In this document: one piece after another, positions 8,140 to 10,511 of the stretch
Position numbering within the stretch: position 1 is the first letter of the stretch
Layout: the number at the start of each line of letters is the position of its first letter
The notes under the pieces: model-generated
Told to the model about the DNA's origin: nothing
Database searches by the model: none
What the model saw: only the letters and a program-made list of their open reading frames with translations
Source of the DNA: a virus
Virus genome (UHGV): UHGV-1625515
Strand: one strand, 5' to 3'
Length of the DNA stretch: 10,511 nt
Program-made: the position numbers and the translations under genes

Positions 8140-8164
8140 TGTTCATTCCACGGACAAAAACAGA

Positions 8165-8278
8165 GAAAGGAAACGACAGAGGCCAAAAAGCTCGCTTTCA
8201 GCACCTGTCGTTTCCTTTCTTTTCAGAGGGTATTTTAAATAAAAACATTAAGTTATGACGAAGAAGAACGGAAACGCC
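8165..8278. promoter_or_regulatory. cosB: cosB: terminase (gpNu1) binding elements R1 (about 8165-8179), R2 (about 8205-8219), R3 (about 8263-8278), with an AT-rich stretch between R3 and R2 consistent with the IHF site I1
   Basis: GAAAGGAAACGACAG (8165-8179) and CTGTCGTTTCCTTTC (8205-8219) form a perfect 15-bp inverted repeat. GAAGAACGGAAACGCC (8263-8278) shares the GGAAACG core. Sequences and spacing match the lambda cosB R elements as I recall them. Confidence 0.75.
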
Positions 8279-8316
8279 TTAAACCGGAAAATTTTCATAA
8301 ATAGCGAAAACCCGCG

Positions 8317-8328
8317 AGGTCGCCGCCC
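8317..8328. other. cosN: cosN: 12-nt cohesive-end site (reverse complement of lambda GGGCGGCGACCT), the terminase nicking site. cosQ is expected within about 10-40 bp on the Rz side (about 8335-8365)
   Basis: Plus strand AGGTCGCCGCCC is flanked on one side by CGCGGG..., the reverse complement of the recalled lambda left end, and on the other by CGTAACCTGTCGGATCGCC, the reverse complement of the recalled lambda right end ...GGCGATCCGACAGGTTACG. Confidence 0.8.
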
Positions 8329-8695
8329 CGTAACCTGTCGGATCGCCGGAAAGGACCCGAGAAAATGATAATGATTATCAGTTGCAACAAAATCCAGTTT
8401 CTTCCACCATCGCACCGGACGAGCGACCATGAGGGGACAACGCCACGCTCCGTTAACGCGGTAAACCCCGGTGTGTATCGTTTTTGATTATCCCCGCACA
8501 CTCGCGCAGAGGAGTCTCCCGGTAGGGCTGCGGTCTCTGTTCATGTGGGAATACGGCGACGATACTGCGCAAAGACATGCTTCAGAAATACATAAGTAAA
8601 CTAAAATATTGTATCTCTGTGGCTAATTACGTAAATTGGTGGCTTGGCCCCTTTAGCCACCGGCAAATCTTCAGCGGATTATCCTTGGCCGGTTT

Positions 8696-9169
8696 TTATC
8701 TGAGGCATTGCTCACGAATGTATAGCTGTGCCCCTTCCAGCTGCTTCTGCATTGTCATCAACCGTTCTCTGAGGATGAAATAATCCCGTTCAGCGGTGTC
8801 TGCCAGTCGGGGGCCGGTTGCATTATCCACGCGGGCGGTGCCGGTGGCTTCACGCACGGGACCTGGACAGGTGGCGTTGATACGCAGGCGCTTACGACCA
8901 GCGGCAACATCAGCACGCAGAGTTTCATTTTCAGCTCTCGCATCGGCTAATTCCCTCGAGTATTTTGCATCGAGCGCAGCAACATCGCGCTGGCGCACCT
9001 GCATATCAGTAATGGTGGCGTTTGCCAGCTCCAGCTCTCTGGCTTTTTTATCGCGCTGCGCTTTGTAGGTGATGGCGTTATCGCGGTAATGGTCTGTTGC
9101 CATCCACAGCGCTCCACAGGCCACCAGCAGAATAACGATAAACGCGGAAAGCATTCGGTTTATGTTCAC
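8696..9169 (-). CDS. Rz: Rz-type inner-membrane spanin (i-spanin). Start uncertain: GTG at 9169 or ATG at 9154
   Basis: The ORF has an N-terminal TM segment ([16 protein letters not shown]), then [15 protein letters not shown] and a coiled-coil-like periplasmic domain ending ...[22 protein letters not shown]. It is clearly homologous to lambda Rz but diverged (roughly two-thirds identical by eye). Confidence 0.85.
8758..8943 (-). CDS. Rz1: Rz1 outer-membrane lipoprotein spanin (o-spanin), fully embedded in the +1 frame of Rz
   Basis: The 61-aa [64 protein letters not shown] has a lipoprotein signal with a lipobox Cys and a proline-rich mature region. It closely resembles recalled lambda Rz1 (MLKLKMMLCVMMLPLVVVGC...). 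Confidence 0.8.
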
Positions 9170-9297
9170 CCCAGCAGCCCCGACGAAGACAACATCATCC
9201 AGGCCATGGAAAGAAAAAGAGCAACCAGCATTAGTGAAAATGAAATGCCGACAATTACACAGAGGATCTTCGCCAGCGTTATGAGTTTGTCTGACAT
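9166..9297 (-). CDS. Hypothetical 43-aa single-pass hydrophobic peptide ([43 protein letters not shown]), function unknown
   Basis: Internal ATG of track ORF 9166..9387, preceded by a strong GGGAGGA Shine-Dalgarno about 6 nt upstream. Its stop overlaps or abuts the Rz start (GTGA-type junction). About 30 consecutive hydrophobic residues. No family recognised by eye. Confidence 0.45.
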
Positions 9298-9311
9298 GCT
9301 TAATCCTCCCT

Positions 9312-9494
9312 TCACGATTTCAACGCAATGACCAGTTTTGCCAGCCCATACAGCATCGGGGACACAGCAACACCGACCGCCACCCACTTAATGGCAAAAG
9401 CCAGTGCTCTGCTGATGTCATCAGTTACAGGCGCTTTCAGTTCAAGGCCGTTTTTCATAGTCAACCTCAACAGAATTCGTTTATACTTCTCCAT
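9312..9494 (-). CDS. Hypothetical 60-aa protein with a basic N-terminus and hydrophobic/amphipathic C-terminal segment ([60 protein letters not shown]). An alternative GTG start at 9527 would give 71 aa
   Basis: ATG at 9494 with an AAGGGAG RBS upstream. Stop lies 2-3 nt before the RBS of the next small ORF, giving an operon-like arrangement. The ORF lies immediately downstream of a hairpin terminator. No recognisable family. Confidence 0.4.
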
Positions 9495-9527
9495 GTTCTC
9501 CCTTGCCTTATCCAAGGTCAGAAACAC

Positions 9528-9570
9528 AAAACCCCGCTTGCAGCCAACAAACGGGGTTTTTACTTTTATT
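9528..9570. terminator. Bidirectional Rho-independent terminator-like hairpin between the endolysin gene and the small-ORF pair
   Basis: Plus strand CCCCGCTTG-cagccaa-CAAACGGGG gives a 9-bp stem with one mismatch and a 7-nt loop. It is followed by TTTTTACTTTTATT on the plus strand and by TTTTGTGTTTC on the minus strand. Confidence 0.5.
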
Positions 9571-9650
9571 CACTTAGTTTTTGTCAGTTCGCAGGATTTC
9601 GTGTTATCCGTCCGTGTGAGCAAACCGCATTTTTCAGCAAAATATTCTGC

Positions 9651-10184
9651 TTATCTGTCAATTCCCCAGCACGCCAGCGCGCTCTCCTGGTCACGCCGCG
9701 ATACCTGCCCGTAACAGTTATTTGAGCGATTCCGACAGTCCCTGCCGCCGTCATATATCCATCGGCGGATTTCAGCACATGCACCTTTCCGGTCTCCGGC
9801 GTTCAGTTTCCGGTAAAACGTTGAGGTGAAGCATTTCGAAGGCCCGATGTTGTACGGACAGAATGACGCGATGCCCGCTTTCTGCGGTTCAGTCAGTGGC
9901 AATTTGATGTTTTTCTCCACCCATGCCAGCGCCTTATCACGTTCAATGGCATTAACCTGAGCGCATTTTTCCTTCGACAACTTCATGCCCGGGACGACAG
10001 GTTTGCCATCCACCATGATGGCACCACGGCAGATGGTCCAGATCCCCGCACCATCACGGTATGCCGTGGTGTGGTTACCTTCTTTTTCGTCAAGAAACTG
10101 GTCGAGGATTTCAGGCGCAGAAGCACCTGTGGCAATCATCGCCAGAACGGCTACCGATAAACCATAGTGGAGTTTCCTGCTCAT
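9651..10184 (-). CDS. R: SAR (signal-anchor-release) endolysin, T4-lysozyme-like muramidase (GH24), 177 aa
   Basis: N-terminal basic stretch plus a Gly/Ala/Ser-rich weakly hydrophobic segment (MSRKLHYGLSVAVLAMIATGASA), followed by the catalytic E-x8-D-x5-T motif (EGNHTTAYRDGAGIWT). GGGGAGAG RBS overlaps the holin stop, with the ATG 4 nt after it. Confidence 0.88.
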   Translation of the reverse strand: MSRKLHYGLSVAVLAMIATGASAPEILDQFLDEKEGNHTTAYRDGAGIWTICRGAIMVDGKPVVPGMKLSKEKCAQVNAIERDKALAWVEKNIKLPLTEPQKAGIASFCPYNIGPSKCFTSTFYRKLNAGDRKGACAEIRRWIYDGGRDCRNRSNNCYGQVSRRDQESALACWGIDR

Positions 10185-10188
10185 CAGC

Positions 10189-10404
10189 TTACTCTCCCCG
10201 CGCAGCTTTGCGCCGGTCTTCTTTAATCTTGAAATACAGATTCGTCAGGTATGTCAGGAACCCCAGACACAGGCTCCCCAAAACCCCGATAGCAGCCCAC
10301 TGTGACGGAGTAACCTGATCCAACCACTGTAGAAACCAGTAACCCGCACTGCCCGCAGAAGTACCATAGGCTATGCCCGTTGATATTTTTTCCATCTGAT
10401 ACAT
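10189..10404 (-). CDS. S: Phage-21-type class II holin (pinholin), 71 aa, with dual-start motif (Met1 and Met4)
   Basis: [71 protein letters not shown] is near-identical to recalled phage 21 S21 (71 and 68 aa forms). It has two TMDs, the first Gly/Ala/Ser-rich and SAR-like, and a charged C-terminus. Confidence 0.9.
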
Positions 10405-10435: not shown

Positions 10436-10469
10436 AATAAAAAAGGCCATCAGTGTTTTACTGATGGCC
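10436..10469 (-). terminator. tR'-like intrinsic terminator immediately upstream of the holin: the expected target of Q-mediated antitermination of the late transcript
   Basis: Minus strand GGCCATCAG-UAAAACA-CUGAUGGCC forms a perfect 9-bp stem followed by UUUUUUAUUU, about 35 nt upstream of the holin start. Confidence 0.6.
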
Positions 10470-10511
10470 CTGCCCCGCCGTTACAGCATTGTGCCCGGTT
10501 CGGGTTGTGTG

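Follow-up and report, generated by a model that had tools for sequence, protein, structure and literature searches.

What are two small genes doing between the endolysin and spanin genes of a lambda-like phage? We asked this of the virus genome UHGV-1625515, a stretch of 10,511 nt (hereafter, the window) whose minus strand carries the late genes of a lambda-like prophage. The endolysin stop codon at 9651 and the GTG start of the spanin gene Rz at 9169 are separated by a gap of 481 bp, which is filled by two minus-strand open reading frames (ORFs), a 60-aa ORF60 and a 43-aa ORF43. A first-pass annotation, made from the letters alone, had described a gap of ~480 bp with two ORFs behind credible ribosome-binding sites and had read the pair as one unannotated module with the signature of a moron. 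The gap, the ORFs, and their ribosome-binding sites are as described. We find that both ORFs are genuinely protein-coding and under purifying selection, that they are distributed independently of each other, and that ORF60 appears to travel in a cassette bounded by a hairpin. Tentatively, we take them for independent accessory genes whose products are made late and act as nonessential inner-membrane modulators of the membrane steps of lysis.

Two separable small genes

ORF60 (9312–9494, minus strand) starts at ATG 9494 and ends with the stop codon 9314–9312, with the Shine–Dalgarno (SD) sequence AAGGGAG three nt upstream of its start. ORF43 (9166–9297, minus strand) starts at ATG 9297 and ends at 9168–9166, with a strong SD (AGGGAGGA) seven nt upstream. 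The span first assigned to the pair, 9166–9527, does contain both; its outer limit is an upstream GTG in a hairpin tail, and the likely start is ATG 9494. Two other starts of ORF60 were rejected: The GTG at 9527 (71 aa) lies in that tail, and distant homologs back the ATG 9494 form; a start at Met13 (48 aa) is at odds with the YKRI..RL.M segment, which is conserved as protein in distant homologs.

The ratio of nonsynonymous to synonymous substitution rates (dN/dS) in the proposed frame was 0.24 for ORF60 (40 distinct DNA sequences) and 0.32 for ORF43 (35 distinct DNA sequences), compared with 0.6–2.3 in the two off-frames. For ORF43, the ratio was 0.09 within a clade of 44-aa versions and 0.5–0.86 in close pairs, and 13 residues are invariant, the CV.VG.SF core among them. 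The most distant ORF60 relatives (~40% identity) retain its length, a YKRI..RL.MKNG.E..AP motif, and the C-terminal helix. Because only the proposed frame shows purifying selection and homologs keep frame and length down to ~40% identity, we consider both ORFs to be real genes. The opposite notion, that these are chance or decaying frames without function, draws on the existence of frameshifted, truncated, and fused copies, but the selection data come close to refuting it, and the conservation of the ORFs across Escherichia, Salmonella, and distant metagenomic relatives, the conserved SDs, and a ribosome-footprint signal for an ORF43 homolog leave it highly improbable.

That homolog is XECs191 of E. 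coli O157:H7 Sakai, reported as a translated, formerly unannotated small gene that in LB had an RNA level of 30 reads per kilobase per million (RPKM), a footprint level of 12.6, and an RCV of 0.43, and that its authors classed as "real" (Huecker et al. 2017, PMC5597208). The same homolog is EDL933_1392 in EDL933 (Neuhaus et al. 2016, PMC4765031). Together with ORF50 of phage BP-4795, these genes resemble ORF43 in sequence (~67%–74% identity) and in lying directly 5′ of Rz. XECs191, predicted to encode an inner-membrane protein and for which no function was proposed, differs from ORF43 of the window in being preceded by ant instead of ORF60 and in having an N terminus that is 5–6 residues longer.

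Phage PhiR5_2 and E. coli S19-651 have identical DNA with both genes, annotated there as hypothetical proteins. The label "unannotated" has little meaning for a raw stretch of DNA such as the window; it does apply to the ORF43 homolog in phage 933W and in most records of Shiga toxin (Stx) phages. Both genes are already catalogued in RefSeq and PHROG, yet uncharacterized, and are not new to the databases. ORF60 (WP_021566721.1) and ORF43 (WP_001280932.1) have full-length matches to phrog_1115 (E = 1.4e-42, residues 1–60) and phrog_4906 (E = 2.1e-23, residues 1–43), respectively, and identical proteins occur in E. coli and PhiR; these direct memberships are catalog entries without a mechanism. 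PHROGs 4493 and 3246 were further families named for ORF60. Searching the literature by accession number and peptide string returned nothing in main texts, no paper on the PhiR phages was found, and the small ORFs go unmentioned in a comparison of Stx phages (PMC8136144).

The two genes are common in E. coli. ORF60 is present in at least 1043 of 5426 complete genomes (at least 19%, at a coverage of at least 80%) and ORF43 in at least 1578 (at least 29%), with up to seven copies per genome. A pattern scan of genome contigs, in which prophage stretches may be masked, returned 16 stretches matching ORF60 peptide patterns, none of them confirmed by tblastn, even though Escherichia and Salmonella commonly have the family. 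Among phage records, ORF43 is intact in 276, mostly Stx-converting phages, and its annotation is missing in most. In 933W, for example, the homolog occupies a 153-bp gap between ant and Rz (AF125520 27420–27569; L225:3421–3570) and is unannotated. ORF60 is found in 14 out of 50,697 phage records, chiefly those of the plaque-forming PhiR series.

We surveyed gene order among ~220 IMG/VR loci. The majority have the order S21-R21-ORF60-ORF43-Rz/Rz1, which is that of the window; ~40 have holin-holin-GH108 endolysin-ORF60-ORF43-lipoprotein (60 aa), and 17 have ORF60 alone before Rz. Stx phages have R-ant-ORF43-Rz. Four endolysin classes precede ORF60, namely, the R21 lysozyme with its signal-arrest-release (SAR) domain, GH108, another SAR endolysin of the GH24 family, and an M15 peptidase. 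Copies that are frameshifted, truncated, duplicated, deleted, replaced, or fused also occur. Since each gene occurs without the other, the two do not form one module as first proposed. They are independently distributed and each is dispensable, which disfavors an obligate toxin–antidote pair.

The GH108-type cassette (L006:1178–3361 in E. coli SOI121; among the ~40 IMG/VR loci, e.g., L091 and L096–L130) has holins of phrog_198 and phrog_217 and no recognizable Rz/Rz1; ORF60 and ORF43 are followed by the 60-aa lipoprotein (lipobox LVGC, phrog_7528). In rearranged copies (P0090, P0094, P0114; L077, L190, L232), the N terminus of ORF43 is fused to the C-terminal helix of ORF60, and in another rearranged form an additional C-terminal fragment of ORF60 lies between ORF43 and Rz. 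These rearranged and fused copies point to recombination between repeated copies.

At the protein level, the two peptides are much as the first-pass annotation had them, a protein with a basic N terminus and hydrophobic C terminus and a peptide with a single transmembrane (TM) segment. Residues 1–29 of ORF60 form a basic segment (+7/−4), followed by a weakly hydrophobic helix (KD19 of 1.88) close in this respect to a SAR domain; AlphaFold2 (AF2) models a helix at residues 23–59 (pLDDT ~85). ORF43 is one strongly hydrophobic helix (KD19 of 2.89; AF2 helix at residues 2–38, pLDDT 89). The C-terminal tails, "KS" and "LSSSGLLG," are uncharged.

Neither peptide could be placed by eye in a known family, and our searches agree: Pfam, NCBIfam, and PADLOC returned no match for either (in PADLOC, none at E values up to 10), and the only PHROG matches were to families of unknown function. 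An HMMER profile search that exhaustively covered 1.84 billion representative proteins recovered only 21 members of the ORF60 family and thus provides no link to a known family. A Foldseek search of the ORF60 model against BFVD had no match, one- and two-helix models being poorly suited to fold searches, and a profile comparison of ORF60 with ORF43 revealed no relationship. A paralog of ORF60 (P0241 type; L088:3292–3465, L134–L148) combines the same C-terminal helix with an unrelated N-terminal half (MDYLYRTGCIHNNLF...); in L088, it adjoins a full ORF60 and the phrog_7528 lipoprotein.

A hairpin-bounded cassette

The first-pass annotation had placed a hairpin terminator before ORF60. The hairpin is real: Terminator scan and folding both identify a GC-rich stem of 14 bp (9528–9560, minus strand). 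Its 46-nt segment has a folding energy of about −21.6 kcal/mol, and the whole 161-nt spacer between R and ORF60 is more stable than its shuffles (z = −3.3). The hairpin has an A-tract on its 5′ side and a T-tract on its 3′ side and so resembles an intrinsic terminator for both directions. The ORF60 ATG follows after only 33 nt, which contain a second, small stem-loop (9496–9523, minus strand; CCUUG-N7-CAAGG core) that is present in both the minimum-free-energy and the centroid fold and whose 3′ arm includes the ORF60 SD.

This arrangement recurs in every ORF60 context. A GC-rich hairpin lies 30–45 nt before the start, preceded by an A-tract and followed by a T-tract, and its stems vary in sequence between contexts yet always pair. 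The small second stem usually holds the SD, and similar SD-containing stems are found 5′ of distant homologs. Homology across contexts begins exactly at the hairpin, which is the 5′ boundary of the cassette, and stops at the stop codon of ORF43 or of ORF60. A promoter scan covering the sigma-70 consensus detected no minus-strand site in the R-to-ORF60 interval of the window and, likewise, no sense promoter for the gene in the distant loci L223 and L233. There is no terminator-like site between ORF43 and Rz, and Rfam gave only sub-threshold chance matches in the region. Judged from sequence, the ORF60 unit thus appears to be a promoterless mobile cassette made up of hairpin, leader, and ORF.

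Is this cassette a moron? Lambdoid morons, as defined by Juhala and Hendrix, have their own promoter upstream and a terminator downstream, and examples are bor, lom, and HK97 gp15. ORF60 and ORF43 resemble them in being extra, dispensable, patchily distributed genes for membrane proteins in late-operon slots. Their presence varies between closely related phages and prophages, and in the Qin prophage of K-12, R and Rz overlap and the slot between them is empty, so the proposal of an accessory insertion holds. In contrast to morons, the two genes have no detectable promoter of their own, and the terminator is upstream. Because the 33-nt leader is too short for a promoter and the terminator precedes the gene, this is not the classical moron layout, and the hairpin cannot be read as a moron signature.

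Another parallel may be found in T4-type phages. Their PeSL cassettes, the subject of work by Arbiol and colleagues in 2010, are reportedly small ORFs flanked by stem-loops and shuffled by recombination. PeSLs share with ORF60 the stem-loop boundary, the small novel ORFs, the varied positions, and the tandem arrays; they differ in having an early promoter beside the stem-loop and belong to another phage group with other sequences. The tandem array that we observed lies behind a lambda-type major capsid gene (L237:3400–4450) and consists of five small TM ORFs (51, 52, 59, 51, and 32 aa), several of which end in ..RWW. Three of the five are preceded by a 48-nt, hairpin-containing direct repeat (copies 94% and 77% identical), and the array looks like the product of duplication or shuffling of cassettes at the hairpin.

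The sole promoter-like match near the two ORFs of the window is on the opposite strand. This sigma-70-like site (TAGTCA-18-TATACT; 9458–9487, plus strand) lies within codons 3–12 of ORF60 and is aimed at the hairpin; at 9/12 positions, its match to the consensus is weak. An antisense site within codons 2–13 is likewise the only promoter-like one near ORF60 in L223 and L233, and L224b and L241 have equivalents. In all contexts, and whatever DNA surrounds it, the hairpin has a T-run on its antisense side. The putative antisense RNA would be ~70–80 nt long and cover the start codon and SD, a configuration that is suggestive only.

We compared the occurrence of this site with synonymous recodings of the same N-terminal peptide, ~40% of which also yield one. 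The site is present in five out of nine lineages, compared with 1.84 expected (Poisson-binomial P = 0.012, which is too optimistic because the lineages share ancestry and are not independent). Third-position conservation is slightly higher in the 5′ half of ORF60.

Could the ORF60 cassette then be a type I toxin–antitoxin-like unit, in which a cis-antisense RNA ending at the hairpin terminator holds a membrane-active peptide in check? Such a unit would stabilize the prophage or abort infection. Both peptides are small and hydrophobic, as type I toxins are (60 and 43 aa, with the helices and KD19 values given above), and the cassette shares further features with loci such as hok/sok, symE/symR, ldr/rdl, and zor/orz: It is prophage-borne and, like many of them, multicopy (up to seven per genome, moving as one piece from hairpin to ORF), its SD is held in a stem, and it may have a cis-antisense RNA, with the hairpin-directed site present in five of nine lineages and the antisense-side T-tract present throughout. 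However, the promoter matches are weak and readily produced by recoding, four lineages do not have the site, and the 5′ half of ORF60 shows only slightly raised third-position conservation. Neither a promoter for a toxin mRNA nor a long 5′ untranslated region was seen; there is no Rfam family and no match or homology to a toxin family such as Hok/Gef, Ldr, Ibs, or TisB; and the ORF60 helix is only weakly hydrophobic behind a basic head of 30 residues, which most type I toxins do not have. We therefore regard the type I reading as doubtful. If the antisense RNA is real, the cassette would be a phage-borne type I-like system of unusual layout; if not, these remain ordinary uncharacterized cargo genes.

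A bolder version of this idea, which we rate just as low, would make the cassette an undescribed kind: a promoterless membrane-toxin gene locked by a bidirectional terminator hairpin and by a cis-antisense RNA arising from its own first codons, with the hairpin doubling as the recombination boundary that lets it hop between lysis, tail-fiber, and capsid regions and build tandem arrays. ORF43 would then be a separate membrane peptide, coupled to Rz and carried by nearly all Stx phages, and would tune the final stage of lysis and with it the release of toxin.

Candidate roles in lysis and beyond

How might these genes be expressed and what might they do? The first-pass annotation had suggested a modulator of lysis timing, a membrane-depolarizing toxin of the Hok/Gef style, or a factor for superinfection exclusion or abortive infection. 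In lambda, Q-modified RNA polymerase reads through downstream terminators. Because the two genes point in the same direction as S, R, and Rz, are tightly packed with them, and have no detectable sense promoter but a hairpin upstream, we infer that they are expressed by late read-through from pR′. On this account, both would be transcribed only when Q-modified polymerase arrives, and the peptides would be made late in lytic growth alongside the lysis proteins. They would insert in the inner membrane, ORF60 with its basic head in the cytoplasm and its C-terminal helix in the membrane, and influence when, or how efficiently, holin or spanin acts. The hairpin, perhaps together with the antisense RNA, would keep the genes silent in the lysogen. 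They would be nonessential, given that deletions, frameshifts, and replacements occur, while the plaque-forming PhiR phages carry both.

A link to lysis is suggested by the company that the genes keep: ORF60 follows four classes of endolysin, the gene right after ORF43 is always Rz or one for a small lipoprotein, and in a Salmonella prophage remnant, an ORF60 relative with ~45% identity (P0244) lies 1 nt before Rz. A role as holin or spanin itself is not indicated. An S21-type holin and Rz/Rz1 are already separately present in the window; neither peptide has a holin match in Pfam or PHROG or a charged C-terminal tail, and neither has a lipobox or more than ~8 residues beyond its helix, as a spanin would need.

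By position, the nearest precedent appears to be P2 LysA, a nonessential membrane protein encoded between endolysin K and the spanin genes lysB/lysC. LysA affects lysis timing; ORF60 and ORF43 match it in position, dispensability, and membrane character. LysA is unlike them in size and topology (141 aa and several TM segments, compared with 60 and 43 aa and one helix each), and the hhalign probability was 1.4%. Phage Mu provides a second comparison: Its lysis cassette, which includes a SAR endolysin, also encodes the releasin gp25 and gp20, both of them small proteins that span the membrane once (Chamblee et al. 2022, PMC9239132). ORF60 and ORF43 share the size, the single pass, and the setting, whereas the hhalign probability was at most 0.9% (the range over gp25, gp20, and LysA was 0.06%–1.4%). 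A releasin-like role specific to SAR endolysins is unlikely because ORF60 also accompanies the non-SAR endolysins GH108 and M15.

Several observations weigh against a lysis role. For either gene, the case for one is drawn from genomic context, and profile comparisons, including those with Mu gp25/gp20 and P2 LysA, gave no homology to any known lysis regulator. Distant ORF60 relatives (P0242, P0247, and the 69%-identical P0057) follow tail-fiber/DUF4376 genes at a prophage end, and another (P0254), part of a tandem array of small TM ORFs, comes after a major capsid gene. Such tail-fiber and capsid slots fit general cargo better than a lysis-specific function. Some hosts of ORF60 relatives look P2- or Mu-like, with the gene behind two terminators, and P2- or Mu-like myoviruses are not known to have Q-type antitermination. 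Finally, the XECs191 footprints come from uninduced cultures (PMC5597208), which leaves room for expression in the lysogen.

The same observations bear on the possibility that these are genes of lysogenic conversion or superinfection exclusion, like bor, lom, cor, or HK97 gp15, whose products block incoming DNA at the inner membrane or alter host fitness. Relatives do sit in classic cargo slots (after tail fibers, and between lysis and packaging genes), presence is patchy, and the genes are very common in prophages (19%–29% of E. coli genomes), in contrast to the mere 14 out of 50,697 phage records that have ORF60; footprints without induction would also fit. On the other hand, no promoter of their own was detected, the terminator is upstream, the packing with Rz is tight, and PADLOC has no match. 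The RNA and footprint levels of XECs191 in uninduced Sakai are low (RPKM of 30 and 12.6, RCV of 0.43) and inseparable from spontaneous induction, which could account for them. We consider exclusion or conversion unlikely.

For ORF43, its spacing from Rz suggests a further option. The distance between ORF60 and ORF43 is 14 nt in the window and 12–22 nt across contexts, with the ORF43 SD in between, and the distance from ORF43 to the next gene is −4 to +9 nt. The first-pass annotation had the ORF43 stop overlap the Rz start. This is so if Rz starts at GTG 9169, a choice that gives an N terminus of a length like that of lambda Rz and an overlap of GTGA, and not if it starts at ATG 9154, where NCBI's annotation pipeline (PGAP) places it, 12 nt past the ORF43 stop and 15 nt past the GTG. 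The PhiR5_2 record uses a start later still. The overlap is thus one of two possible readings and hinges on the true Rz start.

Might ORF43 be mainly an upstream ORF that sets Rz translation by coupling, its peptide being of minor importance? The overlap or short distance (at most 9 nt to the start of Rz or the lipoprotein gene in all contexts), the very strong SD, and the rather relaxed dN/dS in close pairs would all suit this option. The overall dN/dS of 0.32, the value of 0.09 in the 44-aa clade, and the 13 invariant residues including CV.VG.SF argue instead for a peptide that matters; the same peptide also precedes a nonhomologous lipoprotein gene, and Rz is expressed in the absence of ORF43 from the cassettes of lambda, Qin, and the DLP12 type. 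We think it quite improbable that coupling is the main purpose of ORF43.

Returning to late-made modulators of lysis as our preferred, if tentative, reading, ORF43 is of particular interest because of where it is found. Shiga toxin leaves the cell through lysis of Stx-phage lysogens, and ORF43, directly 5′ of Rz in 276 phage records, is a candidate factor in lysis timing or toxin release. This analysis adds that ORF43 is near-universal and mostly unannotated in Stx phages, that the two genes can occur apart, and that ORF60 appears to move between phage modules in a promoterless cassette bounded by a conserved hairpin; it also adds the antisense-RNA hypothesis. Roughly one in five complete E. 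coli genomes has the ORF60 cassette, which may serve as a model for the movement of small accessory genes between phage modules and for the silencing, in the lysogen, of a late gene that is possibly toxic to membranes. The small RNAs AgvB, AsxR, and Pas of enterohemorrhagic E. coli prophages are positioned upstream of the holin gene and not between R and Rz.

The neighboring lysis and packaging genes

The other lysis genes of the window, all on the minus strand, are readily identified. A 71-aa class II holin of the phage 21 S type (10189–10404; PF04971, E = 5e-35; phrog_20 and phrog_9876) is followed by a 177-aa R21-type SAR endolysin with a weakly hydrophobic, Ala/Gly-rich N-terminal segment (9651–10184; PF00959, E = 8e-25; phrog_7). 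The i-spanin Rz (8696–9169; PF03245, E = 7e-50), with its start at GTG 9169 or ATG 9154, has the o-spanin Rz1 embedded in it (8758–8943; PF06085, E = 2e-21).

The dual-start spacing of phage 21 is kept in the holin (Met1/Met4, MYQM; 10393–10404). The antiholin extension of S21-71 carries a Lys; because the window holin does not have this Lys, the dual-start antiholin logic may not apply to it.

Between the endolysin and the hairpin lies an untranslated spacer of ~90 nt (9561–9650, minus strand). It is conserved along with the endolysin and is also found after R in 933W, where it precedes a different hairpin and then ant. At the 3′ end of this spacer, the different types of cassette cease to be homologous. 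The spacer appears to be part of the endolysin module and not of the inserted genes.

Downstream from Rz, an exact lambda cosN (GGGCGGCGACCT) is located at 8317–8328 (minus strand), between Rz and Nu1, as expected of a cos phage of the lambda type. In the region 8140–8695, Rz and cos have no bor-like gene between them, in contrast to lambda and 933W. Beyond cosN are lambda-type Nu1, gpA, portal, protease, gpD, gpE, FI, and FII. At the other end of the lysis cassette, just 5′ of the holin start, is another terminator-like hairpin (10443–10471, minus strand) with 12 pairs followed by TTTTTATTTCC.

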